Assembly (NCBI GenBank): GCA_965203055.1
Contig: OZ241863.1
Location: 2,912,001 to 2,976,000 of the forward strand
Reading direction: 5' to 3'
Source of the DNA: Spirochaetia bacterium
Lineage (GTDB): Bacteria > Spirochaetota > Spirochaetia > SZUA-6 > Bin103
DNA length: 64,000 nucleotides
In this document: one piece after another, positions 18,305 to 64,000 of the stretch
Position numbering within the stretch: the first letter of the stretch is position 1
Layout: each line of letters begins with the position of its first letter
The notes under the pieces: model-generated
The model's database searches: none
Told to the model about the DNA's origin: nothing
Seen by the model: only the letters and a program-made list of their open reading frames with translations
Program-made: the position numbers and the translations under genes

Positions 18305-19057
18305 CTAGAAATGGTACCCGAACGTGGTGGCGATCCGCTGCAGCGCGCCGGCGACGTGAGCGCGGGACCAGTCGGTGTAGTAATCGCGGTAGCCGCCGCC
18401 GTCCTGCAGCTTGTTCTTGGTGCGGGGCAGCCGCGATCGGGGAAGCTGCAGCAGGCGGCAGACCTCCGCGTAGTCCTGCTGCAGATTCTCGAAGCGGATG
18501 TAATAATCGGCGTAGGGTCGCCCGTCGAGGAAATAGAACGCCTGCTGGTCGGCCAGCAATTCGGCGAACCACGCGCGCTTCAAGATCAACTCGAGGTTCC
18601 GGCGATGGCGGCCGAGCAGGTAGTTGGGCAACGTTCGGCACAGCCGGTAGCGCGACCGCAGGAAGCCGCGCCGCGCGCGGTGAAAGGACGGTTTCTCCGC
18701 CCGCCATTCGACGTCGATCTTCCAGCGGTACAGCGACGCGAACCAGTCCCACGGGTTTCTGACCACGGTGAACTTGAAGTATTCGTCCCAGGCGCCGGGC
18801 GCCACGGTCCGGCGGATCGTTTCCGGCAGGACGTGGCCTTGCGCTCCCCGAACGCGCAGCTCGGGAATGACCTGGGCATTGCGCGCCGCAATCACGAACC
18901 GGTCATCGTCCACCGCCGGCAGGTAGCGGTCCAGAAAGCAGTCCGCGACGACGTCGCCGGGCGCGCACAGCGGTGACAGCGCCGCCAGGATGCTGGTGCC
19001 GCCCACCTTGCGCGGGCGCACGAATATGAACTTGTGACGGTGTGAGATGATGCTCAC
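18305..19057 (-). CDS. PAPS-dependent sulfotransferase (Sulfotransfer_2-like)
   Basis: IISHRHKFIFVRPRKVGGTSI (5'-PSB), YFKFTVVRNPWDWFASLY (3'-PB), IRFENL, YRDYY, FGYHF; GTG start 19057. Confidence 0.85.
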   Translation of the reverse strand: MSIISHRHKFIFVRPRKVGGTSILAALSPLCAPGDVVADCFLDRYLPAVDDDRFVIAARNAQVIPELRVRGAQGHVLPETIRRTVAPGAWDEYFKFTVVRNPWDWFASLYRWKIDVEWRAEKPSFHRARRGFLRSRYRLCRTLPNYLLGRHRRNLELILKRAWFAELLADQQAFYFLDGRPYADYYIRFENLQQDYAEVCRLLQLPRSRLPRTKNKLQDGGGYRDYYTDWSRAHVAGALQRIATTFGYHF

Positions 19058-19118
19058 CGCTCTGCTCCCGGCGCGCGGGCTGCCGCCGCCTCGGTCGGGT
19101 ACTATACTATCGGGCGCG

Positions 19119-20549
19119 ATGCAGCCGTTCCATCGGGGGCGCGGTGCGGCGCTCCCCAAGCCGGCGCAGGTCCGCTATAACGACTGGCGGCAGGTGGCGT
19201 TGCCGCCGCCCGCAGAGTTCACCCCCGCGCTGCCGGTCAGCGTGATCATGCCCTGCTATCAGACGCCCCCGGCGGTGCTGGCGCGCACCCTGGCGGCGCT
19301 GGCGGGGCAGACCTGGCCGCGCGACCTGTTCGAGGTGGTGATCGTCGACGACGGCTCCGAGCCGCCGCTGGCCCCGCCCCCGGGAGCGCCGCCGAACGTC
19401 CGGGTGGTGCGCCAGGAACGCCGCGGGTTCGGGATCGCGCGCGCGCGCAACACCGGCGTTCGGGCGGCCACGCACGGCATCATCCTGTTCCTGGACGGCG
19501 ATTCGCTGCCGGAAGCGGGTTGGCTGGCGGCGCACGCCCGCTGGCACCACGCCGTGTCCGACGCGGTGACCGTCGGGTTGCGCGCCAGCGTCGCGATGGA
19601 GGACCTGGAGGCGGAGGCGATCCGGGGCCGGCCCGGCACCCTGCGCGAGCTGTTCGCGGACCGCCCGTTCGACCCGCCCTGGGTCGAACCGTACCTGCGG
19701 CGGACGCGCGATCTGACCACGCGCGCGGACGACCTGTTCCAGTGCGTGGTGGGGGGGAATTTCGGGATCGGCCGGGAGTTCTACCGGGAGGTGGGCGGCA
19801 GCGATGAATCGTTCGTGCGCTGGGGGATCGAGGACAATGAGCTCGCCTATCGAGCCTACACCCGCGGCGGGTTGTTCGTGCCGGTCCGCGCCGCGCTGGT
19901 CTGGCACCAGGGCCGCTGGGCCGAAGGACGGGCCGCGAAGGAGCGCAGCCGCCGCTTGCAGCAGGGCAAGGCGGCCAACCTGATCGCCCATCCCCGCTAC
20001 CGCGGCGCGGCGCGCGGGCGCAGCTATGCGGTGCCCCGCTACGTGGTGACCGTCGAGGCCGGCCGCGGTTCGGTCGAGCAGGCGGCTGCGGTGACCGAGG
20101 CCCTCCTGGCCGACCGCGAGCATGATCTGGTGGTGCGCCTCGAACTCGGCGCGCGCCGCGACCCGGAGCGGCTGGCCCGGCTGCATGAGGCGTTCGCACC
20201 GGACCCGCGGGTGCGCGTCGCGCCGGACCGCTCCGCCCTGGACGAGTTTCCGGCGGCGCCGTTCCATGTGACGCTGCCCGCCACCGTGCTGGCGAAGGAC
20301 CTGGTGACTCGCCTCCGCGCCCGGCTCGGCAGCGCGGCCGTTGCCGCCGCGCTCCTGCCGGACGGCGCGCGGGTGGCGATCGCGCGGGCGTGGGCGCTGC
20401 ATCGGGCGCGGCGTACCGGCGGCGCCCCGGCGGACTTCGGCGACGTCCGTGAGATCGCCCCCGCAAGGCTGCGGCTCGCGGCCGCGGCCCCGCCCGCCGG
20501 CGCCGCCGCGCCCCGCTGGCGCCGCCTGCTCCGACGGGTGCGCGGATGA
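19119..20549 (+). CDS. Glycosyltransferase family 2
   Basis: VSVIMPCY, EVVIVDDGS, ARARNTG, LFLDGD, WGIEDNELAYR. Confidence 0.88.
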   Translation: MQPFHRGRGAALPKPAQVRYNDWRQVALPPPAEFTPALPVSVIMPCYQTPPAVLARTLAALAGQTWPRDLFEVVIVDDGSEPPLAPPPGAPPNVRVVRQERRGFGIARARNTGVRAATHGIILFLDGDSLPEAGWLAAHARWHHAVSDAVTVGLRASVAMEDLEAEAIRGRPGTLRELFADRPFDPPWVEPYLRRTRDLTTRADDLFQCVVGGNFGIGREFYREVGGSDESFVRWGIEDNELAYRAYTRGGLFVPVRAALVWHQGRWAEGRAAKERSRRLQQGKAANLIAHPRYRGAARGRSYAVPRYVVTVEAGRGSVEQAAAVTEALLADREHDLVVRLELGARRDPERLARLHEAFAPDPRVRVAPDRSALDEFPAAPFHVTLPATVLAKDLVTRLRARLGSAAVAAALLPDGARVAIARAWALHRARRTGGAPADFGDVREIAPARLRLAAAAPPAGAAAPRWRRLLRRVRG

Positions 20550-22354
20550 GGTACGCCGGCGCTGCCGTGGGGGAGCGGGTGCGAGATCGGCTGCGGTCGT
20601 GGTCGGCCGCCGCCGGCGCCCTGCCCTGGCGCCTCCTGGCGCGGCGCGCCGCGCTGTCCGCGGCCTTGCTGGCCGGCTGGCTGGCGCTCTCCTGGGCGCT
20701 GCGTACGTGGCTCGGGGCGTGGGAGGACGGCGGCGGCGGACTGAGCGGCAAGATCATGCGGTTCTACCTTCGCAACTGGGCGAGCTGGACCTGGCTGGGC
20801 GCCCTCTGGTGCGCGGCGTGGTGGGGCGTCAAGCCGCTGTGGCGGGCGCTGCAGGAGCCGCGCTTCTTCGACCGCGCGGTCGGCGCCGCCACCCCCGGCG
20901 CCCTGGGCGCGATCCGCGCCTGGGTGTGCGCGATATTGCTGATCATGACACTCCGGGAGGACCTGATGAGCGTGGCGCTGCTGCCGCGCGTCATGGTCCG
21001 CCAGCAGGGTCTCATGGCGATTCTGCATCTGCTGCCGATCGGCTTCGACGCGTTTCTTGCCAACGCCACCGCGCTGCGGGCGTTTCAGTATCTCACCGCG
21101 GCGCTGTTGGCGCTCGGCGTGGTCGGGTTGGGTACGCGGGCGGTGGTGCCGGCCGCCGCGGTCTGCTACTTCGTGCTGGGCGGCATCGTGCGCGAGCACT
21201 CGTTCTACTACCACTCGGGGATCGTGCCGTTGTACGCGCTGGCGGTGCTGTCGTTCACGCGTTGCGGCCAGGGGTGGTCGCTGGACCGACTGTGGCGGGC
21301 GGCGCGCGGCAAGGCGCCGGCGGCGGCGGATCGGCCCGGCGCCTATTTCGGCTGGGCGCGGTATGCGGTCTGGACCGTGATCGCCCTGCCGTACGCGGCG
21401 GCCGGGTGCAGCAAGCTCTATTACATGGGTCTGCGCTGGGTGTCGGCGGACAGCGTGCGCTGGATGCTGCTGCGGCCGACGCTGGATCCGCGGCCGTTCG
21501 ACTTCGACTTGGCGCTGCGCATCATGCCGCTGCCCGACGCGCTGTTCGTGCTGTTGGGGATCGTCGCGCTCGGCACCGAACTGGCGTTCGGGCTGGTACT
21601 GGTCTCGCGGCGCGCCCGGGCGCTGCTGCCGGCGGCCACGGTCGGCATCCACGTCGGCATCCTGTTCCTGCAGAACATCTTGTTTCTCGACCTGATGCTG
21701 TTGCTGTGGGTGTTCTACGACTGGAGCCCGCTGGCGCGGCTGGGCCGGCGGCTGGCAGGAAGGGCCGGCGCGGCGGACGGGCCGGAGCCGGTGGCGGACG
21801 CGGCGCCGGTAGCGGAGGCGGCGGCGGAGGAGCCGCGCGCCCGCCCGGCTGCCGGGCGGCTGGCCGCCGCGCGCCCGGCAGCCGCGCACCGGCGGGGCGC
21901 GGCTGCCGCCCTGGCGATCATGCTGTTTCTGGCCTCCTGGTGGGTGACCAAGATCGAGTGGTATCCGCTGACGGCGATGCAGATGTTCACCGCTCACGGC
22001 CGCGGGGAGGCCGGCGTCGTTTCGTACGTGGCGGCGATCGCCCACTACGAGGACGGCAGCCGCGCACCGGCGCCGTTCGGGGAGTGGATCGGGGCGATGC
22101 CGCCGGGCCGCACCCGGCCGGTCCTCCGGCGCACGCTGCAGGACCCCGCGGGGCGGGCGGTGGGACAGCAACTGCTGGACGCCATGATCCGGGCCGCCAA
22201 CGCGACCGGCGCCGGACCGCGCGTGACGAGCGTGGAGCTGCAGCGCCGGCGCTGGGACTTCCGGGCCGACCCGGACGATCCGGGCCGCGGCGTGCTGACG
22301 CACCGCTACGTGCATCCCGCCCCGGCGGCGGAGCGGGGTGATGGCGCCCGCTAG
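20546..22354 (+). CDS. Multi-pass membrane protein, HTTM-like domain
   Basis: Many hydrophobic segments; WSLD, Y..AG.SKL, H.GI and C-terminal EWYPLT..MF patterns seen in HTTM proteins; ATGA overlap with the GT2 gene. Confidence 0.6.
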   Translation: MRYAGAAVGERVRDRLRSWSAAAGALPWRLLARRAALSAALLAGWLALSWALRTWLGAWEDGGGGLSGKIMRFYLRNWASWTWLGALWCAAWWGVKPLWRALQEPRFFDRAVGAATPGALGAIRAWVCAILLIMTLREDLMSVALLPRVMVRQQGLMAILHLLPIGFDAFLANATALRAFQYLTAALLALGVVGLGTRAVVPAAAVCYFVLGGIVREHSFYYHSGIVPLYALAVLSFTRCGQGWSLDRLWRAARGKAPAAADRPGAYFGWARYAVWTVIALPYAAAGCSKLYYMGLRWVSADSVRWMLLRPTLDPRPFDFDLALRIMPLPDALFVLLGIVALGTELAFGLVLVSRRARALLPAATVGIHVGILFLQNILFLDLMLLLWVFYDWSPLARLGRRLAGRAGAADGPEPVADAAPVAEAAAEEPRARPAAGRLAAARPAAAHRRGAAAALAIMLFLASWWVTKIEWYPLTAMQMFTAHGRGEAGVVSYVAAIAHYEDGSRAPAPFGEWIGAMPPGRTRPVLRRTLQDPAGRAVGQQLLDAMIRAANATGAGPRVTSVELQRRRWDFRADPDDPGRGVLTHRYVHPAPAAERGDGAR

Positions 22355-24179
22355 TTCGCCGGCGCCCCGGCCGCGCAGCGGGCGGGGGTGGGGGCGGGGG
22401 CGGGGGAACGGGTTGCGCGGCGCCGGGCAGTTGGCGCAGGCGCTCACCGCTGACCGGCCGCGCACCGCGGCGCTGGCCGCGCTGCTGCAGTTGGCGTCGA
22501 ATGCGACCGAAGCGTTCGGCTTCCTCCTGCTCATCCCGCTGCTGCACGCGGCCGGCGTGGGCGCGGCGGAAGACCGGCAGGACCGGATGGCGGAGCTGCT
22601 GGCCGGCGCCGCGGACCTGGTGCAGGCGGAGCTGGCCTTGCCGGCGGCGCTCGCCGTCTTCGTCGCGCTCGCCGCGGTGCGCGCGGCGACCGTCTGGCAA
22701 CGCGACGTGCTGCTCGCCCGGACGCGGCTCGACTTCGTCCATCGCTTCCGCGCCACGCTGCAGGATGCGGTGGCGCGGGCGCAGTGGCGGTTCCTCGCCG
22801 GCCAGCGCCAATCGGACATCCAGCACGTGCTGACCGGCGACGTGTACCGCATCGGCCAGGCGGCCGCGCACCTGGTGAAGGTGACCGTGGCCGGCTTGCT
22901 GGCGGTGACGCAGTTGGCGGTCGCCGTGCTCATCTCGCCGCCGGTCTCGGCCATGGCGCTGGCCGCGGGCGCCCTGTTCCTGCTGCTGACGGCGCCGCTG
23001 CTGCGCCGTTCGCGGCTCCTGGGCGATCAACTGACCGGCGTGAACCGCGTGATCTTCGCCCACGTGCAGGACTTTCTGGCCGGCCTGAAGCTGGCCAAGA
23101 GCTTCACCTCGGAACGGATCCACGTGCGGCGCTTCGCCGCGGCCGTCGATGTCGTGCGCCGCCGGCAACTGGCCACCACCCGGGCGGGCGCGACGGCGCG
23201 GGCGACGCTCAACGTGGGCACCGCCGCGGCGCTGGCGGGAGTGGCCTGGTTCACCGTGGTCGAGGCCGGATTGGCGCTGCCGGAGCTGGCCGTGCTGGCC
23301 GCGGTCTTCGCGCGCGTGATGTTCGCGCTGGTGAACCTGCAGCAGAGCGCGCACGAGCTGGCCAATACGCTGCCCGCCTACCACCACGCCCGGGAGATGC
23401 TGCTCGCGCTGCGGGGCGCCGCGGAAGACGCGGCCGGGCGCGGCTCCGAGCCGCGCATGCCGCTGAACCGGGCGCTGGCGGTGCGCGCCGTCTGCTTCGA
23501 CTACGGGCAGCAGGGCGGCCGCGCGGCGCTGGCCGGCGTGACGCTCGACCTCCCGGCCGGCGAGATCACGGCGATCGCCGGACCGTCGGGCGCCGGCAAG
23601 AGCACGCTGGCCGACGTACTGCTAGGCCTGCTGGAACCGACGAGCGGCGCGGTGCTGGTGGACGGCGCGCCGCTCGTCGGCGCCAATCGACGCCGCTGGC
23701 GGCGCTCCGCCGCGTACGTGCCGCAGGAGCCGTACCTGTTCCACGACACGATCCGCGCCAACCTCGCGTGGTCGCGCCCGGGGGCGACCGACGACGACCT
23801 CTGGCGGGCGTTGCGCGCGGCCGCGGCGGAGGAGTTCGTCCAGGCGCTGCGGCACGGCCTGGACACCGTGGTGGGCGACCGCGGCGGCCGCCTGGCGGGC
23901 GGCGAACGGCAGCGCGTGGCCCTGGCGCGCGCCCTGCTCGCCGCGCCGGCGCTGCTGGTGCTGGACGAAGCGACCAGCCAACTGGACGCACGGACCGAAG
24001 GCCGCGTGGTCGCCGCGCTGCGGGCGTTGCGCGGGCGCATGACGATCGTCGCCGTGGCCCACCGCCCGGCGGTGCTGGCCGCCGCGGACCGGGTGGTGCG
24101 GCTGGACGCCGGCCGCGTGGTGGCGAACCGAACGATGGGAGCGGGGGATGGTCAGCTTGGGGATCGCGCGCTACCATGA
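22341..24179 (+). CDS. ABC exporter, fused permease/ATP-binding protein
   Basis: N-terminal TM domain; [34 protein letters not shown]. Confidence 0.92.
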
Positions 24180-24211
24180 TCGACGGGCGGACACGCCGCC
24201 GGAGGGAAGAC

Positions 24212-26407
24212 TTGGGTAGAGCATCGTTGGTATCGCTGTTGCTGGCCGCCGGCATCGCCGCGCTGATGGCCTGTTCCCAGGCGGCGCGCCCGGCCGCCGC
24301 GCCCGCCGACCCGGCCCAGGGGGGGGGGGGTAAGCCGCCGAGCGAGCCGCCGCCAACCCCGCAGCCGGCAGAGCCGGCAGAGAAGCGCTGGAGGATCGGC
24401 GCGGCTGACTTTGGCGATGATGAACTGAACCTGGCGGGCGCAGTGTCCAACCGTTCCGCGCCGTATGCCTGGGAGCGGGTCACCGCCCGCAACGTGCGCG
24501 TTTCGATCGGCGGACACGAGCTGCCGTTCACGAGCACGAGCGCCAAGCCGGTCTTCGCGTCCGACATCTCCGGCGCGGAGTGGACGGTTGCCGCCGAGGT
24601 GCGGGCGGGGGAAGTGGTGCTGGTGCTCACCGCCCCCGATCAGTCGGGCGCCGGCGACACGGTTGCGTCGGTCACGATCACCAACCCGGGGAGCGGCTAC
24701 ACGACAGACCCGACCGTGACCTTTTCGGCGCCGCCGTCCGGCGGCGCCACCGCAACCGGCACCGCGACGGGGTCCCGGTACGTCGACTCCGTGACGATTA
24801 CGACCGCCGGGAGCGGCTACACCTCGGTTCCCACCGTGACCTTTTCGGCCCCGCCGTCCGGCGGCACGGCAACCGGCGCCGCGGTGGGGTCCGGTACCGT
24901 CGATTCCGTGACGGTGGGAACCGCCGGGAGCGGCTACACCTCCGTTCCCAGCGTGACGTTCGGGGCGGCGCCGTCCGGCGGCACCACGGCCGCCGGCGCC
25001 GCGGTGGGGTCCGGGTACGTCGATTCCGTGACGGTCGGAACCGCCGGGAGCGGCTATACGGCGGACCCTGCGGTGACGTTTTCGGGCGGAGGAAGCGGCG
25101 GCGGTGCGGCCGCCTCCGCGGTGCGGCAATCCGGCGTAGCGTCAGTGACGATCACGGACCGGGGGAATACCTATACCTCTGACCCCAGCGTGACGTTTGG
25201 GGCGCCGCCGCCCGGCGGCACTACGGCGACCGGCACCGCAACGCGGAGATCCGAAGTTATCATTGTGCAGATGTCGAACTTGGGGAGCGGTTACACGTCT
25301 GTCCCAACCGTTACCTTTGGCGCGCCGCCGTCCGGTGGCACCCGGGCAACCGGCACAGTGGTGATAAGTGGCGGTCAAGTGTCTTCCGTAACCGTCACGA
25401 ACGGGGGGAGCGGCTACACCTCCACCCCTTCCGTCACGTTTTCGGGAGGAGGGGGCAGTGGTGCGGCCGGCACCGCGGTGAGAAGCGGCGGTCAAGTGTC
25501 TTCCGTAACCGTCACGAACGGGGGGAGCGGCTACACCTCGGCCCCTTCCGTCACGTTTTCGGGAGGAGGGGGCAGCGGTGCGGCCGGCACCGCGGTGATA
25601 AGTGGCGGTCCGGTGAGTTCCGTAACCGTCACGAACGGAGGGAGCGGCTACGCCTCGGCCCCTTCCGTCACGTTTTCGGGAGGAGGGGGCAGCGGTGCGG
25701 CCGGCACCGCGACTCTGGGAAGAACCAGAATAGAGGCCGTGACGATCACGACCCCGGGGAGCGGCTACACCTCCGCCCCTTCCGTGACGTTTTCGGCCGC
25801 GACGGTCACGCGGTTCACGGCGACCGGAACCGCGGTGCTGGAAAGCGGCGTGGCGTCGGTGACGGTCACGAACCGGGGGAGCGGCTACACCTCCGTCCCG
25901 ACCGTGACCTTCGGAGCAGCGCCGGGCGGCGGCACCACCGCAACCGGCACCGCGGCGCTGCGCTACGGCGTAGCGTCGGTGACCGTGACGAACGGCGGGA
26001 GCGGCTACACCTCGCCCCCGACCGTGACCTTCGCGGCAGCGCCGAGCGGCGGCGCCACGGCCGCCGGTACCGCGGACATGCGCTACGGCGTAGCGTCGGT
26101 GACCGTCATGAACGGAGGGAGCGGCTACGCCTCCGCCCCCACCGTGACCTTCGCGGCGGCGCCGAGTGGCGGCACCACGGCCGCCGGCACCGCGGTGCTG
26201 CGAACCGGCGTAACGTCGGTGACGGTCACCAACGGTGGGAGCGGTTACACCGCTGCCCCAACCGTGACCTTTGCGGCGCCGGCCAGTGGCACCACCGCGA
26301 CCGGCACGGCCAAGCTGGCGGAGGGCGGCTACGATCAATACCAGAACCTGTATTGGGCGCGCCAGACGCTGGCCGGCAAGCAGCTTCTGGTCGAGCTGGC
26401 GGACTAG
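24212..26407 (+). CDS. Surface lipoprotein with 14 tandem ~40-aa V.SVT.T..GSGYT..P.VTF repeats (paralogue 1)
   Basis: GGAGG RBS then TTG 24212 (alternative ATG 24176); lipobox-like ALMA-C; repeats counted from the translation. Confidence 0.8.
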
Positions 26408-53231: not shown

Positions 53232-55388
53232 ATGCCGAACCCGCGCCGCCTGGAACGAGCCCTGGTCCGCGCCATCCGCGCGGGCGCGGCGCTGGTGCTG
53301 CTGACGCCTCTGATCGTCACGCCGGCGACCGTCTACCCGTTCGTCGTCGGCAAGGCGCTCTATTCGCGGGCCGCCATCGAAGTGGTCGTCGGCCTGTACG
53401 CGGCGCTGGCGGCCCTGCGCCCCGCCTACGCGCCGCCGCGGCGGTCGCGGCTCCTGCTGGCGCTCGCCGCGGCCCTTGCGGCAGCGCTGGCCGCGGCGGT
53501 GCTGGGCGTCAGCCCCCGGCGCAGCCTGTGGTCCGATTACGAATCGATGCAGGGCGTCGTCGACGCGGCGCACTGGTTCGCGTTCACGGTCGTCATCGCC
53601 GCCACCTTCCGCACCGCGCGGGAGTGGCGCGCGCTGTTGAACGTCAACCTCGGCGTGGGCTCGGCGATCGCCCTGCTGGCGGTGGCCAGTTCATTGGCGG
53701 TGGACCTGCCGTTCTTCGGCTCCCTGCCGGAGTACCGGTACCCGCGAATCGCCACCGTGTTCGGCAACCCCCTCTATCTCGGCGCCTACATGCTGGTGAA
53801 CGCGGTGGTCGCCGGCGGGTTCCTGGCGCGGTCGTTTGCCGGCGCCGGCGGCGGCGCCCGGTTCAGGTGGGGCCGGCTCCGGTGGGGCGCGGCGGCCGCC
53901 CTCCACCTGTGGGCGTTCACCCTGGCCGGCTCGCTCGGCGCATTGGCGGGACTCATCGCCGCCGGCGGGTTCCTCGGCGCGGCGTACCTGTTGCTGGCGC
54001 GCGCCCGGGCCGCGCGGATCGCGGGCGCGGTCGCCGCGGCGCTGGCCGCCGCCGCGGCGACCGGCCTGGCACTGCCGCTCCTCGCCGGAGGCGGCCTGCC
54101 GGAGCGCGCCATCGACTCCTCCCTCAACCCGTTGCTGCAACGGATCGACCGCCTCAGCTTCTCGACCGGGACGCTGCAAGGCCGTCTGGCTGCCTGGCAG
54201 GCGGGTCTCGCAGGTTTCGCGGCGCGGCCGCTGCTGGGCTGGGGGCCCGACAACTTCGCGGTGGTGTTGGGCCGGTACGCCGCCGCCGCCGGCGATTCGA
54301 CCATTGCGTACGTAGGGTACGCGCACAGCAAGATCGTGGAGGAGGCCGCGACCAAGGGCCTGGCCGGCCTGGCGACCTATCTGGCGGTGTGGGCGGCGGC
54401 GCTGGCCGTCATCGCGCGCGCCGGCCGGCGCGCGGACCCGGGGGAGCAGGCGCTGGTACTGTTCACCGGCGCGGCGCTGGCCGGCGCCGGCGCGCAGATC
54501 CAGACGCTGTTCGACCACAGCGCCTCGTCCCTGCAATACGCGCTGCTGTTCGGCTTCGTCATCCACCTGGAGATTCGGCAGCGGGCCGCCCGCCGGCCCG
54601 CCGGCCCGCCGGTCCCCGCAGGCAACGGGCGCCGGCGGCCCTGGCGGCGCCGTGCGGGCGCCGGGACGCGCGCTGCGCTCGCGTTGGGCGTGTTGGCGTT
54701 GGCGGGGGCCGGCCTGGCGGCCAACCGCGCCATCTACTCGGCCGCGGTCGCGCTCAAGGACAGCTATGCCGCCGAGCACTACCCGGCCGCGGTGGAGCGC
54801 GCCATCGCCGCCTTCCCGCCGCTGGCGAACCTGCCGCGGCGGCTCTGGTTCCTGAGCCTGGCGAACCACTGGCAGGAGCTGCATGCCCGCGACCCCGCGG
54901 CGGCGCAGGAGATCCTGGCGCGGGCCGACGTCGAAGCGTCGGCCGCGGTCGCCGCCGAGCCGGAGAACTGGCTGATCCAACAGGCGCTGGCCTTGATGTA
55001 CCGCGCCGCGGCGTCCACCGAACCGGAGTACCGCGCCAAGGCCGAGCGCTTCTTCCGGCAGTCGCTGGAGCTGGCCCCCCACCGCGACCGGTTCGCCGCC
55101 CCGCAGGTCGATCCCTACGGCGCGCCGCGGCAGTTGCGGGTTCGCCGTCACGGACCCGGGAGCTACACGTTGACCTGGCGCAATCCCCCCGGCTATCGGG
55201 GGAAATTCGAGGTGCAGGAGCGGGTGGGCGACGCGCAACGGACCGCGGTCGTCGACGGCACCTGGCTCCCGCTGTCGGGCATGAGCCCCGGCATCTACTT
55301 CTATCGGGTGCGGGCCTGCGGGAGCGGCAACCGGTGCGGCCGGTGGGCGTCATGGCCGCCCATTCACGTCCCGGCGGGCGGCGGCTGA
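53232..55388 (+). CDS. O-antigen ligase/O-oligosaccharyltransferase-like membrane protein with a C-terminal FN3-like domain
   Basis: YPFVVGK, RIATVFGNP, R..AW..G..RPLLGWGPDNF, YAHS..E..G..GL (Wzy_C); tail YTLTW..YFYRVRAC. Confidence 0.8.
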   Translation: MPNPRRLERALVRAIRAGAALVLLTPLIVTPATVYPFVVGKALYSRAAIEVVVGLYAALAALRPAYAPPRRSRLLLALAAALAAALAAAVLGVSPRRSLWSDYESMQGVVDAAHWFAFTVVIAATFRTAREWRALLNVNLGVGSAIALLAVASSLAVDLPFFGSLPEYRYPRIATVFGNPLYLGAYMLVNAVVAGGFLARSFAGAGGGARFRWGRLRWGAAAALHLWAFTLAGSLGALAGLIAAGGFLGAAYLLLARARAARIAGAVAAALAAAAATGLALPLLAGGGLPERAIDSSLNPLLQRIDRLSFSTGTLQGRLAAWQAGLAGFAARPLLGWGPDNFAVVLGRYAAAAGDSTIAYVGYAHSKIVEEAATKGLAGLATYLAVWAAALAVIARAGRRADPGEQALVLFTGAALAGAGAQIQTLFDHSASSLQYALLFGFVIHLEIRQRAARRPAGPPVPAGNGRRRPWRRRAGAGTRAALALGVLALAGAGLAANRAIYSAAVALKDSYAAEHYPAAVERAIAAFPPLANLPRRLWFLSLANHWQELHARDPAAAQEILARADVEASAAVAAEPENWLIQQALALMYRAAASTEPEYRAKAERFFRQSLELAPHRDRFAAPQVDPYGAPRQLRVRRHGPGSYTLTWRNPPGYRGKFEVQERVGDAQRTAVVDGTWLPLSGMSPGIYFYRVRACGSGNRCGRWASWPPIHVPAGGG

Positions 55389-57794: not shown

Positions 57795-59714
57795 TCACGG
57801 CTCCGCTCCGCCGGCCTCACGGCCCGGCTCCGCCGCCGGCGCCTCGAGCTCCGCGGCCCAGAGCTCGCGCCCCGTATCTCTGACGAGCTGGCCGGTTCTG
57901 AGGCGGGCGATGGCGTAGTCCGGCAGCGTCACGGCTGCGAGACAGACGCCTTCCCAGAGCACTCCCTGCCACCAGAACTCGAAGTCGAGGGTGTCGAAGC
58001 CCCGCTCCCGGATGCCGGAGGCAAGATCGCCATCGGAGGCCAGCTCGTCCGCGGCGGCCGGGAAGACGTGCAGGAAGAAGCGCTCCCGGACATCCGCCCG
58101 GCCGCAAGGCTCCTTCGCGTACACCAGCCGGTCCCCGGCCAGATACAGGTCGAACACCTCGCCGGCGGCGCGCCGCCGGCCGGCCAGCGAGGCCTGCAGC
58201 GCGCGGAACTCGGCCAGCTCCTGCGCCAGGTAGTGATCGTCGTCGAACGGCTCGGGCGCCGCCGCCGGCGCGCGCACCATGGTCTCGCCCATGATCGACC
58301 CGATGCCGCCGTAGGCCCGGTACCGCCGCGGGAAATTGGGCCGCGGCACGTACCGTTGCCGGGTATCGACCCGGAACACTTCGTTGCCGGCCGCGTCCAC
58401 CTCGACCACGGTCAGCGGCAGGGAGTCGCTCACCCGGGTGGTGGCTCGCACGCCGAAGTTGATCAGCGTATTGCCGTTGCTCAGCCGGTAGGCGCTGCTC
58501 ATGGCCGGCGAGTAGATGTCCGGCGTCGGCCGGTATTCCCACACCTTCACCGCGGTGCCGGCCGCCTCGTCCAGCCGCAGCTCCAGCGCGCGCGAGTAGG
58601 CGCCGCCCTCGGCGTCGGGCCGCCCCCAGCCGTTGTCGAACAGCAGTACGTTGCCGTCGTCGAGCTGCGCCGCGGTGTGCGGCCCGTAGAACCGATCGTT
58701 CGGGTTCGGGAACCGGTAATCGCTGTCCGGCCCGTGCAGTTGCCATTCGATCGCCCGCAGGTCGGCGCTGAGCGAGATCACCTGATTGCGCACGCGGGAC
58801 GAGATGATGAGGTTGCCGCGCGGGCCGATGCTCACCGAGTTGAGGTGCGTCCACCTGACCGTGCCGAGTTGCTCCGCGCGTCGGGTCAAGTCGCGAATGT
58901 CCCAGAACTCCCCGGCGTCCCAGACCTGCTCGACCTGTCCGCGCGCGCGGTCCCAGACGCGCAGATCGTCGACCCTGAACTCGACCTCGTCGAAGACGAC
59001 CGATTCCCGGCTCAGGTAGATCACGCGGCCATCGGCGAGCGCGAGGACCTCATGGTGCGGAATCCCCGCGGCTCCGCCCCGCTCCAACCGGTCGACCACT
59101 TCTCCCAAGGGGGTGATCTCGATCAGACCCCTCCGGGGGTCCGTGAAGAGCAAGGCGCCGCCGGGCAACTGAGCGATGGCGCCGACCTGCAACGCCCGGA
59201 CAGCGGAGGCGCCGGACGCATCGTAGTACCAGACCGGCGCCCCCGTTTCATCCCGGAACAGGAGGTATGCGCGTCCGTCGCCGCGCAGGTAACCGGACAG
59301 GATGAGCGGCTGCGAGCTTCTGCCGCGCGCCTGCGTCGATATGGCGGCGAGGCGCCGCGGCAGCGGTCCGGTGGTGAACCGGCCGCCCGGCCCGGCGGCG
59401 CCTTCCGCCGCGGCGCCGTCCATTGCCGAGCCGTCAGCTGCCGAGCCGTCCACGACGAAGATGGTGTAGTCGTAGGTCGTCTCCGGGCGCAGCCTGACGA
59501 GCGGGATGACGTGCGCCGCGCCCCGCTCGCTCAGCGGCGTGCGGTAGCGCCCGGCCTGCGGGTGGTCGTACTCGACGTACACCCGCGCCGCGCCTGACAG
59601 CGCTACCCGCACCTCGACGATCAGCGCGTTGCGCGCGCTGACCGACGCGCCGTGGCGCAGGACCGCGGCGGCGTCCGCCGCCGGCGCCGGCGCGGCGGCG
59701 AGCGCGATCGACAC
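57795..59714 (-). CDS. Aryl-sulfate sulfotransferase (paralogue 3)
   Basis: PHHE, WTHLNSV, SSR, FYGPHTA; the signal region is shorter than in the other two, so the start is uncertain. Confidence 0.8.
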   Translation of the reverse strand: MSIALAAAPAPAADAAAVLRHGASVSARNALIVEVRVALSGAARVYVEYDHPQAGRYRTPLSERGAAHVIPLVRLRPETTYDYTIFVVDGSAADGSAMDGAAAEGAAGPGGRFTTGPLPRRLAAISTQARGRSSQPLILSGYLRGDGRAYLLFRDETGAPVWYYDASGASAVRALQVGAIAQLPGGALLFTDPRRGLIEITPLGEVVDRLERGGAAGIPHHEVLALADGRVIYLSRESVVFDEVEFRVDDLRVWDRARGQVEQVWDAGEFWDIRDLTRRAEQLGTVRWTHLNSVSIGPRGNLIISSRVRNQVISLSADLRAIEWQLHGPDSDYRFPNPNDRFYGPHTAAQLDDGNVLLFDNGWGRPDAEGGAYSRALELRLDEAAGTAVKVWEYRPTPDIYSPAMSSAYRLSNGNTLINFGVRATTRVSDSLPLTVVEVDAAGNEVFRVDTRQRYVPRPNFPRRYRAYGGIGSIMGETMVRAPAAAPEPFDDDHYLAQELAEFRALQASLAGRRRAAGEVFDLYLAGDRLVYAKEPCGRADVRERFFLHVFPAAADELASDGDLASGIRERGFDTLDFEFWWQGVLWEGVCLAAVTLPDYAIARLRTGQLVRDTGRELWAAELEAPAAEPGREAGGAEP

Positions 59715-59853: not shown

Positions 59854-61407
59854 TCACCCTTCGCCTACCCGGACCCGAAGCTGCCTGCCGGACAGCGTGT
59901 CGCGCGCCCAAAACAGGTTCTGGTACCGGTCGTTGCCGCTTTCCGCCAGCACTGCGACGCCGGTCGCGGTGGTGCCTGTGGACGGCGCCGCCGCAAAGGT
60001 GACGGTGGGGGCCGAAGTATAGCCGCTCCCCCCGTTCGTGATCGTCACTGACGTAACCTCGGTTCTCAACGTCGCGGTGCCGACGGCCGTGGTGGCGCTG
60101 CCGCCGGACGGCGCTGCCGCAAAGGTGACGGTGGGGGCCGAGGTGTAGCCGCTCCCCGGGTTCGTGATCGTCACGTCCGCCACGTCATAGTTCATCACCG
60201 CGGTACCGATCGCCGTGGTGCCGCTGCGCGGTGGCGAAAAGTACACCGCGGGCGCCGAGGTATAGCCGCTCCCCCCGCTCGTGATCGTCACTCCGTCGAT
60301 CTTCTCGCGCAGCACCGCAACGCCGCGTGACCCGCCATCGGGATCGCCGCCGGCATTCGGGGCGAAGGTCACGGTGGGGGCCGAGGTGTAGCCGCTCCCC
60401 CGGTATCTGTCATCCCAATAGAACCCGACGCGGTCGACCTTGTCGCCGGAAAGGAACACGGTGACTATACTCGGCTTGGTCCCGCCCGGCCGCTGCGGTG
60501 CCGAGAATATGATCCGGGGCGTCGCGGTCCAGCCGCTCCCCGCCTCCGTGATCGTCACTGACTCGACTCTGTCGGGCCCAAACACGGTGCCGGCAGCCGT
60601 GGCGCCGCCGGCCGGCGGGGCCCCGAACGCGACGGTTGCGGTCGGGGTGTAGCCGGTCCCGCCGCTCGTGATCGACACCGACGCGACTTGACCGATTGCC
60701 ACTGCGGCGGCGGCAGCCGTGGTGCCGCCGGACGGCGCTGCCGCAAAGGTGACGGCGGGGGCCGAGGTGTAGCCGGCTCCCGGCGTCGTGACCCTCACGG
60801 ACGCGACTTGACCGGGCCCCGCCGCGGTGCCGGCGGCTGTGGCGCCGGCGGCCGGCGCGGCCCCGAACGTCACGGCCGGGGGCGCGGTGTAGCCGCTCCC
60901 GCGGTTCGTGATCCTGACCGACTCGACGTAGTCCAGCGCTTCCGTCTGATTCGGGGCGGTGAGCACGAGCACCACCGCTCCCGCACGGACTTCGAAGTCA
61001 ACCCTCCACTCCGCGCCGCTGAGATCGTTCTCGAAGCGCGGTGCGGTCGCCTTGTTCGTGAACGGCAGGTCGTGGCCGTCGATCGACACGGTCACCTTCT
61101 CGCCCTCGGCGCCGGTGATCCCGTCCCAGGCGAACGGCTTGGAACGGTTGGACGTTGCGATCAGGTTCGCGTCGTCATCGAAGGCGTCCTCCCCGATGGA
61201 CCAGATCTTCTCTGCCTGCTGTGTCTGCTGTGGCGGCGGGTCGGCCTCAGGCGGGGAGGCAGGCGAGGCAGGCGACGCCGGGGCGGCGGCGGTCGTTGCG
61301 GGTGGCCGCGCCGCCTGCGGGCACGCCGTCAGCGCGATGCCGGCGGCCACCGCGAGCGCCAGCATCGCTGCCGTCCGCTCCCTTACGCCCTTGGTTTCAG
61401 TCATCAT
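59854..61407 (-). CDS. Surface lipoprotein with 8 GSGYT repeats (paralogue 3)
   Basis: Lipobox-like ALTA-C; same flanking domain and C-terminus YQNLFWARDTLSGRQLRV; ATG 61407. Confidence 0.8.
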   Translation of the reverse strand: MMTETKGVRERTAAMLALAVAAGIALTACPQAARPPATTAAAPASPASPASPPEADPPPQQTQQAEKIWSIGEDAFDDDANLIATSNRSKPFAWDGITGAEGEKVTVSIDGHDLPFTNKATAPRFENDLSGAEWRVDFEVRAGAVVLVLTAPNQTEALDYVESVRITNRGSGYTAPPAVTFGAAPAAGATAAGTAAGPGQVASVRVTTPGAGYTSAPAVTFAAAPSGGTTAAAAAVAIGQVASVSITSGGTGYTPTATVAFGAPPAGGATAAGTVFGPDRVESVTITEAGSGWTATPRIIFSAPQRPGGTKPSIVTVFLSGDKVDRVGFYWDDRYRGSGYTSAPTVTFAPNAGGDPDGGSRGVAVLREKIDGVTITSGGSGYTSAPAVYFSPPRSGTTAIGTAVMNYDVADVTITNPGSGYTSAPTVTFAAAPSGGSATTAVGTATLRTEVTSVTITNGGSGYTSAPTVTFAAAPSTGTTATGVAVLAESGNDRYQNLFWARDTLSGRQLRVRVGEG

Positions 61408-61481
61408 GACGGTTCCTAAGATAAGGTTACCTGATGGATAGCACCACTGTCGCCCACGACGCCCTCCCCCCAGGGCCTCCT

Positions 61482-61512
61482 GGGCTCGTTCCAGGCGGCG
61501 CGGGTTCGGCAT
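61482..61512 (-). pseudogene. First 10 codons (MPNPRRLERA) of the O-antigen-ligase-like gene
   Basis: 31 bp identical to 53232-53262 in inverted orientation, then unrelated sequence. Confidence 0.8.
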
Positions 61513-61565: not shown

Positions 61566-62945
61566 CTAATCGTCATCGACGATGGTGACGGTCGCGGTAC
61601 ACCGCGACGGCAAACCGCACGTCAGGGGCGCCGGCGGCGAGATCGTCACCGTGAACGTCTCGTCCGGCTCATCGTCAAGGTCCCCCATCACTCCGATATA
61701 GATACTCACGGTCTGCGAAGTGGAGCCGGCCGGGAATAGCAGATACCCGTTGGTAAAGTCAGCCGCTTCGGGATGGTCGGGAGTGATAGCAGCACCTGCG
61801 TAATCATCACCCGACGTCGCCGTGCCGTCCGACAACCGATATGTCAAGCGCGCCGCCCGCGCCCGGGGGGTGGCCGAACTCAACCGCACCGGGAGCCTGT
61901 ACCCGGTTGGATACGGCAGCCATCTGGGCGTATACCCGGTCGTGATCAACCGGCCGCGGTTGCCTTCGGTAACGCTTTGATCGGCGATCGATATGGTGAT
62001 CGCCGCGTCGCCACCGCCCGCCGGCGGCGTTACCGGCGGCGGGTCACCACCGCCCGGCGGCGGCTGCGTGCCGGGATCGTCGGTCGTGGTGAACGACCAC
62101 ACGGTACCCTTGGTGGTGCCGTGCTCGTTCTTCGCGTCGACCCGCCAGTAGTAGGTCGTGGCGCTCGCCAGCCTCCGGTCGGCTGCGGTCGTGCCCGGCC
62201 TCCGTATGGTCCAGGCGGTGTAACGAGTGCGGACCGGCGTACCCAGGGCAGCGTCCGCGCCGAGGCTCCTCCCGGTCCCCCAGTAGAGGTCGTAGCTGGC
62301 CGTCCGCGCGCCCGCGGTCCAGTGCAGCTCCGGCGCGTCGACCGTCACCCCGGTCGCCCCGTCGCGGGGATTCGGGTTGCCGGCCGCTTCCGGCGCCTGC
62401 GACGGAGCCTCCAGCCACGGTCGGGCGCCGGGAATGGTCGGCGGCACGTCGTCCGGCAGGTCATCGACGTCGAAGCCGTCCGGCAAGTCGGATACTTCCG
62501 CAATGCACGCGTCGTTGGTATCGACCACGCAGGAGGTGCCGTCGGCGCGGCGGCTGATGATGTACAGGCGAGTGCCGGCGGGATAGCGAATCACGATCAG
62601 GGAGTACTCGGACTGATGAGATGACGCCGCACGCCCGGCCGGGTCGAACGCGCCGGCTACGGACCGGTTCGCCGGCGCCGCGCACGTGGCCGGCGCCGTG
62701 GCCCCGCCCAGGTGCAACGTGTCGGATACGATCGCGCCGTGGATTCCGGCGCCGCGGTCAAGCAGACGGATCGCCGAGTCCGCGCACGTGATCGCCGCTG
62801 CCGGTTCGGCCGCCGGCGGACTCGCAGGTTGGGCAGGATCGGGCTGCGTTGCGACCGGACGCGACGCCTGCTGGCAACCTGCCAACGTGAGCAGCAGTAT
62901 GCCGCCTACCGCCGATCCGACAGAGTACCGCATCACCTGGACCAT
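61566..62945 (-). CDS. Lipoprotein with FN3-like and Calx-beta domains (copy B)
   Basis: Inverted paralogue of 51817-53160: near-identical core, divergent Calx-beta interior. Confidence 0.8.
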   Translation of the reverse strand: MVQVMRYSVGSAVGGILLLTLAGCQQASRPVATQPDPAQPASPPAAEPAAAITCADSAIRLLDRGAGIHGAIVSDTLHLGGATAPATCAAPANRSVAGAFDPAGRAASSHQSEYSLIVIRYPAGTRLYIISRRADGTSCVVDTNDACIAEVSDLPDGFDVDDLPDDVPPTIPGARPWLEAPSQAPEAAGNPNPRDGATGVTVDAPELHWTAGARTASYDLYWGTGRSLGADAALGTPVRTRYTAWTIRRPGTTAADRRLASATTYYWRVDAKNEHGTTKGTVWSFTTTDDPGTQPPPGGGDPPPVTPPAGGGDAAITISIADQSVTEGNRGRLITTGYTPRWLPYPTGYRLPVRLSSATPRARAARLTYRLSDGTATSGDDYAGAAITPDHPEAADFTNGYLLFPAGSTSQTVSIYIGVMGDLDDEPDETFTVTISPPAPLTCGLPSRCTATVTIVDDD

Positions 62946-62971: not shown

Positions 62972-63000
62972 ACCTTACGGCGAAGGGCGCCCGGCGTCAA
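62972..63000 (-). promoter_or_regulatory. Putative sigma70 promoter of Calx-beta copy B
   Basis: TTGACG-N17-TAAGGT on the minus strand. Confidence 0.5.
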
Positions 63001-63133
63001 CCTCCATGGGCGGGCGGACGGACGCCACTCTCCCCGACGCCATGAAGCGGGACGGCACGCGGCGTGCGGCTCGCCGGGTGGCGGGCGGCGTTGCATTTGA
63101 ACAGACTGCGCCCGGCTTGCTATCGTGGCGCGG

Positions 63134-64000
63134 ATGAGATCAGAGCCGCCGCAAGCGGTACGAAACTGCTCGCTCCTGTCGGTGGTGGTCGCCTGCTTCG
63201 ACGAGGAGGCGGTCATCTCCGAGACCCACCGCCGGCTGGTGGCCGCCCTGGAGCGCATACCGGAGACCGGATTCGAAATCATCTACGTCGACGACGGCAG
63301 CCGGGACGGCACCCTGGAGCTGTTGCGGGGACTGCAGGCGGCCGACGCGCGCGTGCGGGTGGTCGCTCTTGCCCGGAACTTCGGCCAACCGATGGCGCTT
63401 ACCGCCGGCGTGGCCGAAGCCGGCGGCGAGGCGGTGGCGGTGATCGACGCCGACCTGCAAGACCCGCCCGAGATCATCGCCGAGATGCTGGAGCGCTGGC
63501 GGCGGGGCGTCGACGTCGCCTACGGCCTGCGGCCCGACCGCGAAGGCGAGACCGCCTTCAAGCGCTGGACCTCCAGGGCGTACTACCGGCTCCTGGCGCG
63601 CATTACGGACGTCGCCATCCCGCTCGACACCGGCGAATTCCGGCTGATGGACCGCGCGGTCGTCGACGCCTTCCTGGCGATGCCGGAGCGCGACCGGTTC
63701 ATGCGCGGCATGATCGCCTGGGCCGGCTTCCGGCAGGAGCCGGTGCGCTACCGCCGGGCGCCGCGCGCCGCCGGGACGACCAAGTATTCGCTCAGGAAGA
63801 TGGTCGGCGTGGCCGCGGACGGCATCCTGTCGTTCTCCCTGCTTCCGTTGCGGGCGGCGACGTGGCTGGGCGCCGGCGCTGCCGGGCTGGCTCTGGCCGG
63901 CATCGTCTACGCGCTGGGCGCGCGGCTGGCCACCGGCGCCTGGGTCGGGGGCTGGGCGGCGACGTTCCTCGCCGTGCTGTTCCTGGGCGGCGCGCAACTC
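63134..64000 (+). CDS. GtrB/polyprenol-phosphate glycosyltransferase (GT2), 3' truncated by the window edge; absent from the ORF track
   Basis: Hand translation from ATG 63134: LSVVVACFDEE..IIYVDDGSRDGT..LARNFGQ..IDADLQDPPE..DTGEFRLMDR..ERDRFMRG..AGTTKYS. Confidence 0.9.
   Translation, partial: MRSEPPQAVRNCSLLSVVVACFDEEAVISETHRRLVAALERIPETGFEIIYVDDGSRDGTLELLRGLQAADARVRVVALARNFGQPMALTAGVAEAGGEAVAVIDADLQDPPEIIAEMLERWRRGVDVAYGLRPDREGETAFKRWTSRAYYRLLARITDVAIPLDTGEFRLMDRAVVDAFLAMPERDRFMRGMIAWAGFRQEPVRYRRAPRAAGTTKYSLRKMVGVAADGILSFSLLPLRAATWLGAGAAGLALAGIVYALGARLATGAWVGGWAATFLAVLFLGGAQL

Follow-up and report, generated by a model that had tools for sequence, protein, structure and literature searches.

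A C-terminal domain shared by arylsulfate sulfotransferases and GT-C glycosyltransferases in a mobile island of a Spirochaetia bacterium

Known systems add sugars to exported glycans by means of a polyprenyl-phosphate donor and a GT-C glycosyltransferase; the immunoglobulin (Ig)-like C-terminal carbohydrate-binding module (CBM) of GT136 ORF12 binds the acceptor O-polysaccharide, and the CBMs of the Emb proteins and AftD also bind their acceptors (PMC11127046). More than 40 years have passed since arylsulfate sulfotransferases (ASSTs) were discovered, and for most of them neither the natural substrate nor the role has been identified (PMC13426309). The stretch of DNA analysed here (hereafter the window; 64,000 nt, positions 2,912,001 to 2,976,000 of contig OZ241863.1, assembly GCA_965203055.1) belongs to the 4.56-Mb genome of a Spirochaetia bacterium (G000, hereafter the source genome) and encodes three ASSTs and three GT-C paralogues of ~800 amino acids (aa) that all end in copies of one ~100-aa C-terminal domain (CTD). 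Through this undescribed domain the orphan ASSTs are connected with GT-C enzymes, and the question of the ASST substrate becomes open to experiment. The ASSTs bearing a domain shared with GT-C enzymes are what is new here, whereas extracytoplasmic glycan modification by a polyprenyl-phosphate donor and a GT-C enzyme is already known. Extracytoplasmic glycosylation by the island to which these genes belong is highly probable; the broader reading, that this ~80-kb mobile island encodes a set of tools by which, at the outer face of the cytoplasmic membrane, a cell-surface glycan is decorated, we consider evenly poised.

Comparison with described systems brings out what the island shares and what sets it apart. 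As in GtrA/GtrB/GtrC and in the Citrobacter youngae system of a polyprenyl-phosphoribose synthase, a MATE flippase and GT136, a GtrB-like family 2 glycosyltransferase (GT2; in the window) or a UbiA-family protein (in a sister cluster) lies beside GT-C genes; the island GT-C proteins end in an Ig-like beta-sandwich, as does ORF12 (PMC11127046), and one CTD carrier elsewhere matches GtrII. In contrast to those systems, no GtrA-family flippase was found in the source genome, nine full-length GT-C enzymes and a broken one stand in place of one, the CTD, of which a protein has 1-10 copies, cannot be linked by sequence to any described family, and the CTD-bearing ASSTs have no counterpart. With EmbC/EmbA/EmbB and AftD the island has in common tandem GT-C genes, C-terminal extracytoplasmic modules and, presumably, a polyprenyl-phosphate donor from a UbiA-family enzyme, and EmbA/B and AftA/AftD are among the fold matches of one window enzyme, GT-C3; however, the island enzymes are of the PMT_2/PMT Pfam family, the CTD is much smaller than those CBMs and repeated, the host is not an actinobacterium, and ASST and selfish genes intervene between the GT-C genes. 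In the caprazamycin system (Cpz6/Cpz8/Cpz4), the ASST Cpz4 sulfates a sugar hydroxyl and is supplied by Cpz8, which depends on 3′-phosphoadenosine 5′-phosphosulfate (PAPS) (PMC4257720, PMC13426309). The island likewise combines a PAPS-type sulfotransferase with ASST-family enzymes, but this sulfotransferase belongs to the Sulfotransfer_2 family, a Cpz6-like type III polyketide synthase (PKS) is missing from the source genome, the ASSTs have signal-like N-termini and a CTD, and the presumed acceptor is a polymer and not an antibiotic. The island ASSTs share four active-site residues with AssT of E. coli CFT073 (PDB 3ELQ), differing from it in the additional CTD, in forming a multi-copy family that adjoins GT-C genes, and in that no DsbL/DsbI-type partners were seen among the window gene calls. 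In a literature search neither an ASST/GT-C system nor the CTD was found to be described, a result of little weight since an unnamed domain cannot be searched for by name.

Because the G+C content of the window is ~70%, genes were called by third-position GC and then scanned against Pfam and NCBIfam. In the translations of the window, the CTD is present in two copies at the C-terminus of each ~800-aa GT-C protein and in one copy at that of each ASST. A hidden Markov model built from the window copies found 36 domain matches in 25 open frames of the source genome, and a separate whole-genome search found 37. The domain has no Pfam match even at E ≤ 10 and no NCBIfam match; it is undescribed, yet not rare. 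Two cysteines are invariant in an alignment of 45 CTD sequences from many lineages, which fits a disulfide bond in an extracytoplasmic (oxidising) compartment. The AlphaFold model of the CTD (pLDDT 90.5) is all-beta, a sandwich of 7-8 strands, and the domain is thus predicted to fold as an Ig-like beta-sandwich; two such sandwiches follow residue 545 in the model of full-length GT-C3. Foldseek returned no PDB match to the CTD model at E ≤ 1e-3, and with an exhaustive structural aligner (VIA) the best matches were generic FN3, Ig and GH2-sandwich folds (Z 7.7). A complex prediction pairing the CTD1-CTD2 region of a GT-C with an ASST CTD scored 0.00 and gave no verdict. By analogy with the CBMs of other GT-C enzymes, a glycan-binding role for the CTD is slightly favoured. 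A role as a secretion or sorting signal of the kind used by the type IX secretion system was rejected, the domain being repeated up to 10 times, borne on polytopic proteins and present in Chloroflexota lineages, which to our knowledge lack that system.

The ASST and ~800-aa GT-C genes are clustered much more than chance would explain. Of the source genome's nine substantial ASST matches, seven, and all nine full-length and the one broken ~800-aa GT-C paralogues, fall in two clusters at 2.782-2.815 and 2.949-2.997 Mb, the window covering the first half only of the latter. Among the nine ASST genes, three immediately precede a GT-C gene of the same orientation, and in two further cases nothing but a PIN pair or a PDDEXK_9 gene stands between ASST and GT-C. 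The same interleaving recurs in the related genome G011 and in the island of G010 and G012, where the ASSTs are only ~65% identical to those of the source genome. In a maximum-likelihood tree of 45 CTDs, those of the Spirochaetia ASSTs form one clade (support 98/94) that is sister (97/89) to CTD1 of the GT-C enzymes of the same genome, and the only ASST CTD from Dehalococcoidia is placed, at weak support (86/48), with GT-C CTDs from that lineage. From this it appears that ASSTs acquired the domain from GT-C genes in their own genomes, perhaps on two independent occasions. Judged from sequence, the link between ASSTs and GT-C enzymes is stronger than adjacency alone, by way of this shared domain.

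The window ASSTs are firmly assigned to their family, with PF05935 scores of 94.6, 115.7 and 109.6 bits (cut-off 24.2; E 8e-27 to 3e-33). The ASST profile aligns E. coli AssT (3elq) over positions 154-467 with an E-value of 3.4e-20, and in a register fixed by the entry of the H436N mutant (4p04), all three window proteins have the equivalents of the catalytic His252, His356, Arg374 and sulfo-histidine His436, in the stretches IPHHEV, W[TI]HLNS, S[SF]R and [PQ]HTAAQ; their identification as ASSTs in an earlier note on this DNA, made from the letters of the window, is thereby upheld. In one paralogue encoded outside the window, the residue equivalent to His356 is Gly. The N-termini of the window ASSTs are hydrophobic and Ala-rich, with ASA↓D and AADA↓A-like sites, as read directly from the translations, and thus resemble signal peptides; the start of ASST3 is uncertain, since an in-frame hydrophobic leader containing RRR precedes the called GTG. 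Among PDB sequences, ASST3 matches best to 9kf4/9kf6, an entry with the title 'Sulfotransferase'. A further paralogue of the source genome (1407338-1408846; 61% identity to ASST3) has one in-frame TGA and no CTD match and is probably a pseudogene, and in-frame TGA codons are also found in several basal ASSTs of related genomes.

Both clusters contain, beside their ASSTs, a Sulfotransfer_2 gene, these being the only two in the genome; the PAPS dependence of the products is deduced from their family, and a stretch RKVGGTS, read directly near the N-terminus of the window protein, is presumably the PAPS-binding loop. Each stands side by side with a gene for a GT2 glycosyltransferase (GT2a) that has exactly two genome copies, so that there is one such pair per cluster. 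Homologues of GT2a adjoin CTD/GT-C genes in G011 and G015 and flank a CTD gene in a Binatia metagenome-assembled genome (MAG), and the order GT-C, GT2a, Sulfotransfer_2 is kept in G015. The source genome encodes an adenosine 5′-phosphosulfate (APS) kinase and CysD-like and CysNC-like genes. Sulfation of the island's glycan is plausible; that it is the ASSTs that sulfate a glycan can be put forward only tentatively, at somewhat less than even chances. As separate observations, a LarC gene (Ni insertion) and a LarE-like gene occupy window positions 1-1645, next to a stand-alone APS kinase gene ~1.4 kb to the left of the window, and the source genome has 45 sulfatase-family matches. Among these, the one at 178141 lies near a CTD cluster at 180-200 kb, that at 4313955 adjoins the gene of a CTD protein and that at 1409271 adjoins the ASST gene at 1407338. 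From its gene content, the organism seems geared to sulfated substrates.

The window GT-C proteins match PMT_2 with E-values of 8e-9 to 8e-7, and also PMT, and have six to seven strong hydrophobic segments in residues 1-400. A phmmer search of GT-C3 against PDB sequences gave nothing meaningful; its AlphaFold model (pLDDT 76.6) is matched by Foldseek to AglB (3wak, 9.4e-6) and ArnT (5ezm, 1.4e-5), followed by EmbA/B, AftA, STT3 and PglB. Among 17 GT-C sequences from three phyla, D41, in a D-E pair after the first transmembrane segment, is invariant and D35 nearly so; this D-E motif we take to be the catalytic motif of the GT-C family. On the donor side, the GT2 protein encoded at 63125 matches Glycos_transf_2 (E 4e-32), PgfS (E 3e-66) and the ArnC-type PRK10714 (E 2e-34), the latter two below their equivalog cut-offs, and in the diverged island of G010 and G012 a gtrB homologue lies directly upstream of the GT-C arrays. 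The logic of a GtrB-like synthase feeding GT-C enzymes, which the earlier note had proposed, is supported. For the UbiA-family protein of the sister cluster, whose gene stands next to that of a GT-C with CTD, the scores are 348.5 bits with PRK08238 (cut-off 351) and 143 bits with decaprenyl-phosphate phosphoribosyltransferase; its orthologue in G015 lies upstream of a gene for a CTD membrane protein. A sulfate carrier in the form of a prenylated phenol made by this UbiA was considered and dropped, because the protein resembles polyprenyl-phosphate phosphoribosyltransferases most. The part of flippase or exporter may fall to the MsbA/PglK-like ABC exporter. The Wzy_C protein (PF04932, 41.3 bits, cut-off 31.7), with its multiple hydrophobic segments, may be of the O-antigen ligase, polymerase or O-oligosaccharyltransferase type, between which its sequence does not discriminate.

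The domain is carried well beyond this genome. In the source genome it is found on the ten ~800-aa GT-C paralogues, one of which is broken, on eight ASST paralogues (of the nine substantial ones, only the TGA-interrupted copy at 1.407 Mb gave no match) and on several other polytopic proteins, including a 651-aa PMT_2 GT-C and a 1619-aa PMT-like protein. Searched against 1.84 billion representative proteins, the CTD profile gave 2344 matches at E ≤ 1e-3 and 1879 at E ≤ 1e-10; the number of copies per representative protein ranges from 1 to 10, the highest count being that of a public 1851-aa Wzy_C representative (P0001). A Pfam scan of 50 of the best 150 representatives gave PMT_2 in ten and Wzy_C, GtrII, DUF2079, ASST and Polysacc_deac_1 in one each, and a hydropathy scan predicted at least six transmembrane segments in 91 of the 150. 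A search of public genomes with a 10-sequence alignment located the domain in MAGs titled as Spirochaetia, Dehalococcoidia, Caldilineaceae, Vicinamibacterales, Binatia, Latescibacterota, Gammaproteobacteria, Pseudomonadales and Azotimanducaceae. PMT_2 GT-C proteins with up to four CTDs, often in tandem arrays, occur in the Dehalococcoidia and Gammaproteobacteria MAGs, and carriers other than GT-C enzymes include an ASST (Dehalococcoidia), SGNH/AlgX-like proteins (Pseudomonadales) and a PQQ glucose/sorbosone dehydrogenase (Caldilineaceae). Many of the public-genome carriers have no Pfam match; at least five hydrophobic segments were found in 12 of 14 carriers scanned, most of them among those without a match, which would be the architecture of GT-C enzymes. 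Every identifiable CTD partner is therefore an enzyme acting on glycans outside the cytoplasm.

Two further loci were observed in the course of these searches. A third, small CTD cluster of the source genome at 180-200 kb comprises the 1619-aa PMT-like protein (two CTDs) and two polytopic CTD proteins, and adjoins genes for a GT2, an LPG_synthase_TM protein and a GNAT acetyltransferase. In a Vicinamibacterales MAG (OZ241843.1, locus L048, 13929-15464, minus strand), a gene for Arylsulfotran_2 (PF14269), in which no CTD was detected, directly follows a tandem array of genes for six to seven CTD-bearing polytopic proteins; an ASST-family gene thus adjoins a CTD array in a further phylum.

Six of 41 relatives within the phylum, counting the source genome and all of one family, contain the CTD, which was found in none of 300 further genomes sampled across the phylum. 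By RpoB identity, G010 (91%) is of the same genus as the source genome, and G011 and G012 (both 76%) are more distant. The island of G011 (OZ241907.1, 4.014-4.091 Mb), in which the two clusters of the source genome form one contiguous stretch, is identical to it at 95-99% of nucleotides in blocks of 4-8 kb; set against an RpoB identity of 76%, this indicates a recent transfer of ~80 kb between genera. The set of lineages that carry the CTD resembles, we assume, the consortia that live together in marine invertebrate hosts.

In the mechanism proposed, the GtrB-like GT2 and the phosphoribosyltransferase-like UbiA of the sister cluster would load sugars onto polyprenyl phosphate, as expected from their families, and the ABC exporter is a candidate for flipping the products. 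Each of the ~800-aa GT-C paralogues would then move such a sugar to an already exported acceptor, for which the one to several CTDs, probably disulfide-bonded, may serve as binding modules, comparable to the Ig-like CBMs in which GT136 ORF12, EmbA/B/C and AftD end. The ASST paralogues would have acquired their CTD from resident GT-C genes; as they combine a copy of the GT-C module with a complete sulfo-histidine site, they would be brought to the same polymer, which they would most likely O-sulfate with an aryl sulfate as donor. A second step of sulfation or priming, dependent on PAPS, is suggested by GT2a and Sulfotransfer_2 as a conserved cytoplasmic pair, and the arrays of diverged paralogues could generate variety in the surface glycan, with the PDDEXK_9, PIN, Uma2 and transposase genes as passengers or as drivers of the duplications. 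In its fullest form the proposal makes the ASSTs extracytoplasmic polysaccharide sulfotransferases that are guided by the CTD to the polymer glycosylated by the GT-C enzymes, supplied with aryl sulfate from the surroundings or through GT2a and Sulfotransfer_2, and makers of a variable sulfated coat encoded on an island that passes as a unit between co-resident bacteria; as a whole this is unlikely. Such a coat would perhaps imitate the sulfated matrix of a host, although host-glycan mimicry, which the earlier note had raised, is speculation.

Five lipoprotein genes are interleaved with these enzymes, and the earlier note had named their products as a possible target of the system. Their lipoboxes can be read directly (LMAC, LMAC, LAGC, LTAC and LAGC) and are followed by linkers rich in Pro, Ala, Ser and Thr; their S+T+P content is 27-33%, versus 13.8% in five window enzymes. 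Repeat lipoprotein 1 has a P/A/S-rich linker and ~40-aa GSGYTSxPTVTF repeats without a Pfam or NCBIfam match. Its family has 32 matches scattered across the genome, and no homologue of the repeat lipoproteins or of the Calx lipoproteins is present in the examined island loci of G010 and G012 or in the loci of other phyla, for which reason the lipoproteins are a poor candidate for a specific acceptor, and that part of the earlier proposal is not supported.

Several findings weigh against the island as a toolkit for surface decoration. The Z score of the CTD fold match lies within the common range of the aligner and the match is generic, so the term CBM draws only on architecture and precedent; no GtrA-family flippase (PF04138) was matched in a genome that is 95.9% complete, MATE flippases not having been searched for; and no type III PKS (PF02797), which would make an aryl carrier for the sulfate as Cpz6 does, was matched in the genome. 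Several gene copies are degenerate or broken, and with 95-99% identity between the islands the synteny shared by the source genome and G011 counts as one observation, not two. The coupling of ASSTs with GT-C enzymes put forward in the earlier note is borne out by the shared CTD and the sister relation, but it is not general: G014 and G015 have 10 and 22 CTD matches with only 2-3 basal or fragmentary ASSTs, and the Dehalococcoidia ASST-CTD gene (L044) has no GT-C neighbour. The ASSTs might act on small phenolics, in detoxification or in shuttling sulfate between aryl sulfates, with the CTD as an anchor only, to the cell surface or to a matrix glycan, and the GT-C enzymes decorating the envelope independently. 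Characterised ASSTs use aryl sulfates and mostly phenolic acceptors (PMC13426309), the number of sulfatases fits a life on sulfated substrates, the PKS that would make a carrier is missing, CTD-GT-C arrays occur without expanded ASSTs in G014, G015, Dehalococcoidia and Gammaproteobacteria, and the CTD is present on unrelated enzymes too. We regard this as rather unlikely, given that the CTD of the ASSTs seems to stem from CTD1 of GT-C enzymes in their own genome, that an ASST gene lies directly upstream of a GT-C gene in two diverged versions of the island, that all other soluble CTD carriers with a Pfam match are glycan-acting enzymes, and that Cpz4, DhAST and HefAST sulfate sugars (PMC13426309).

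The GT-C enzymes may instead be PMT/Pgf-like protein O-glycosyltransferases acting on the Pro/Ala/Ser/Thr-rich linkers of the lipoproteins, whose glycans the ASSTs would then sulfate. The Pgf system glycosylates surface adhesins, and the PMT_2 and PMT matches of the GT-C enzymes, the PgfS match as the closest of the GT2 at 63125, the composition of the lipoproteins with linkers directly after the lipobox, and the order Calx lipoprotein, repeat lipoprotein, ASST, GT-C, which is kept in G011, all speak for such a target. It is distinctly unlikely in view of the scattered lipoprotein family and its absence from the examined loci, and G011, with its near-identical island, is no independent witness; furthermore, the precedents for a C-terminal beta-sandwich on GT-C enzymes are polysaccharide-binding CBMs (PMC11127046), and CTDs also occur on Wzy_C, GtrII and AlgX-like proteins, families that by their Pfam names act on polysaccharides. 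That the CTD is an assembly domain without glycan binding, docking ASSTs, GT-C enzymes and others to each other or to a scaffold, would agree with the frequent role of Ig/FN3-like sandwiches in protein contacts, with the many FN3 and cytokine-receptor domains among its top folds and with the similarity of the ASST CTD to CTD1 above all, but is improbable for a domain found in 1 to 10 tandem copies on very different enzyme families in different phyla, as is typical of substrate-binding modules, with CBMs as its precedents on GT-C enzymes (PMC11127046). Very unlikely, too, is the absence of any coherent pathway, the locus being then a recombination hot spot of selfish genes and decaying paralogues in which adjacency is functionally meaningless. 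Eight selfish, unrelated or fragmentary genes do lie among the enzymes; some PDDEXK_9 copies are degenerate, one GT-C is broken, one ASST is interrupted by an in-frame TGA, one CTD fragment is an orphan, and there are CTD fragments before three successive PDDEXK_9 genes in G011 and a low-GC insertion between two lipoprotein paralogues. The region is indeed no tidy pathway, as the earlier note had it, but a recently transferred mosaic rich in paralogue arrays and selfish genes; yet most GT-C and ASST copies are intact long frames with a third-position GC of 0.84-0.93 and conserved catalytic residues, CTD-GT-C arrays exist in other phyla without any PDDEXK_9 gene, and the island has kept 95-99% identity after its transfer between genera.

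Should the surface-decoration reading hold with the ASSTs included, the island would reveal a natural polymer as an ASST substrate, the first for this family, and a way in which bacteria sulfate surface glycans independently of PAPS. On the ASSTs themselves, a CTD of the kind that may bind acceptor polysaccharide on GT-C enzymes offers a concrete handle on their substrates, and across phyla the domain would mark a set of extracytoplasmic glycan-modifying enzymes for glycosylation, acetylation/deacetylation, oxidation and possibly sulfation. The transfer of ~80 kb of surface-decoration genes between genera bears on surface variation in uncultured, probably host-associated bacteria.

All the gene types named in the earlier note were located in the window by Pfam (by NCBIfam for the GtrB-like gene) or, for the lipoproteins, by reading: one GtrB-like gene, four GT-C, Wzy_C, GT2, ABC exporter, Sulfotransfer_2, three ASST and five lipoprotein genes (Table 1). 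The fucosyltransferase-like call fared less well, for although the gene is present, and syntenic in G011, its family match is weak and under the cut-off. Genes in addition to that list are those for a B12-radical-SAM enzyme, three AAA-ATPase_like/PDDEXK_9 proteins, a PIN protein, a Uma2 protein, Transposase_31 and a type I restriction-modification/YgjP fragment.

Table 1. Genes and domains of the island in the window (window positions; CTD, shared C-terminal domain).
Feature	Positions	Strand	Evidence and remarks
Sulfotransfer_2, PAPS-type carbohydrate sulfotransferase family	18305..19159	-	PF03567 E 1.9e-7; no predicted transmembrane segment
GT2a, GT2 glycosyltransferase, 500 aa	19047..20549	+	Pfam
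Polytopic membrane protein	20546..22354	+	Start overlaps GT2a stop; without Pfam match
ABC exporter, fused transmembrane and nucleotide-binding domains	22338..24179	+	Pfam; HepA/MsbA/PglK-like, each below cut-off
Repeat lipoprotein 1	24180..26407	+	LMAC lipobox, direct reading; start codon uncertain
Transposase_31 (YhgA/Rpn-like)	27347..28423	+	Pfam; within low-GC insertion
Repeat lipoprotein 2	29902..31524	+	Direct reading; 61-62% identity to repeat lipoprotein 1
Soluble protein, weak O-FucT resemblance	31539..32561	-	PF10250 E 0.12, 12.4 bits (cut-off 31.5)
Short GT-C, PMT_2, 503 aa, without CTD	32612..34123	+	Pfam; single copy in genome
B12-binding radical SAM enzyme, methyltransferase-like	34133..35677	-	Pfam, NCBIfam
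AAA-ATPase_like + PDDEXK_9 gene	35791..37359	-	Pfam; 42 nt downstream of GT-C1
GT-C1, PMT_2, 796 aa	37402..39792	-	CTD1 37813-38124, CTD2 37438-37746
Degenerate AAA-ATPase_like/PDDEXK_9 gene	39869..41413	-	50/201 ATPase-profile positions matched
GT-C2, PMT_2, 835 aa	41658..44165	-	CTD1 42132-42440, CTD2 41697-42005
PIN-domain toxin and small upstream partner	44266..44712	-	Pfam; between ASST1 and GT-C2
ASST1, beta-propeller	45050..46942	-	PF05935; signal-like N-terminus; CTD 45059-45358
ASST2	46960..48942	-	PF05935; CTD 46981-47298
Uma2-family gene	48973..50232	-	Pfam; start uncertain; as called, overlaps 50045-51670 gene
AAA-ATPase_like + PDDEXK_9 gene	50045..51670	-	Pfam
Calx-beta lipoprotein 1	51817..53160	+	LAGC lipobox, P/A-rich linker; Pfam
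Wzy_C, O-antigen ligase/polymerase-like, 718 aa, polytopic	53232..55388	+	Long soluble C-terminal part
GT-C3, PMT_2, 793 aa, paralogue modelled	55350..57731	-	CTD1 55785-56093, CTD2 55410-55718
ASST3	57795..59714	-	PF05935; 64 nt upstream of GT-C3; CTD 57834-58160
Repeat lipoprotein 3	59854..61512	-	LTAC lipobox
Calx-beta lipoprotein 2	61566..62945	-	75-76% identity to Calx-beta lipoprotein 1
GtrB/ArnC/PgfS-like GT2, polyprenyl-phosphate sugar synthase type	63125..64000	+	Frame continues 138 bases past window

For the polytopic protein that follows GT2a, language-model features gave HTTM as a possible family (score 0.96), which is to be taken as a lead only. The AAA-ATPase_like/PDDEXK_9 genes have 17 close paralogues in the source genome and follow GT-C genes at a distance of 3-45 nt. 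A succession of three in G011 has a CTD fragment before each, and an orphan CTD fragment is found in the source genome at 2996999-2997619. This arrangement suggests that the PDDEXK_9 genes either insert at the 3′ ends that encode the CTD or promote duplication at these sites. The CTD loci of other phyla are without them, and PADLOC returned no match for the PDDEXK_9/AAA-ATPase_like, PIN or Transposase_31 genes.

In the stretch at 26400-29900 the GC content falls to about 40-50%, and Transposase_31 is accompanied there by fragments of a type I restriction-modification subunit and of a YgjP-like gene. The flanking repeat lipoproteins 1 and 2 have nearly identical N- and C-termini, and the stretch looks like an insertion into a tandem lipoprotein duplication; Transposase_31 is not part of the pathway. 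To the left of the island genes, where the GC content dips to ~60%, an AAA_21 ATPase gene (16415-18237, plus strand) matches the candidate defence family PDC-M07A (E 1.5e-56) and is followed by an overlapping gene for a 195-aa protein without a family; a pair of AAA_21 and DUF4276 genes flanks the Dehalococcoidia ASST-CTD locus L044. Elsewhere in the source genome, a ~1.5-kb element encoding a 447-aa HNH-domain protein (2791779-2793122) recurs in at least 17 other places at 89-94% identity (blastn) and is probably an active mobile element.

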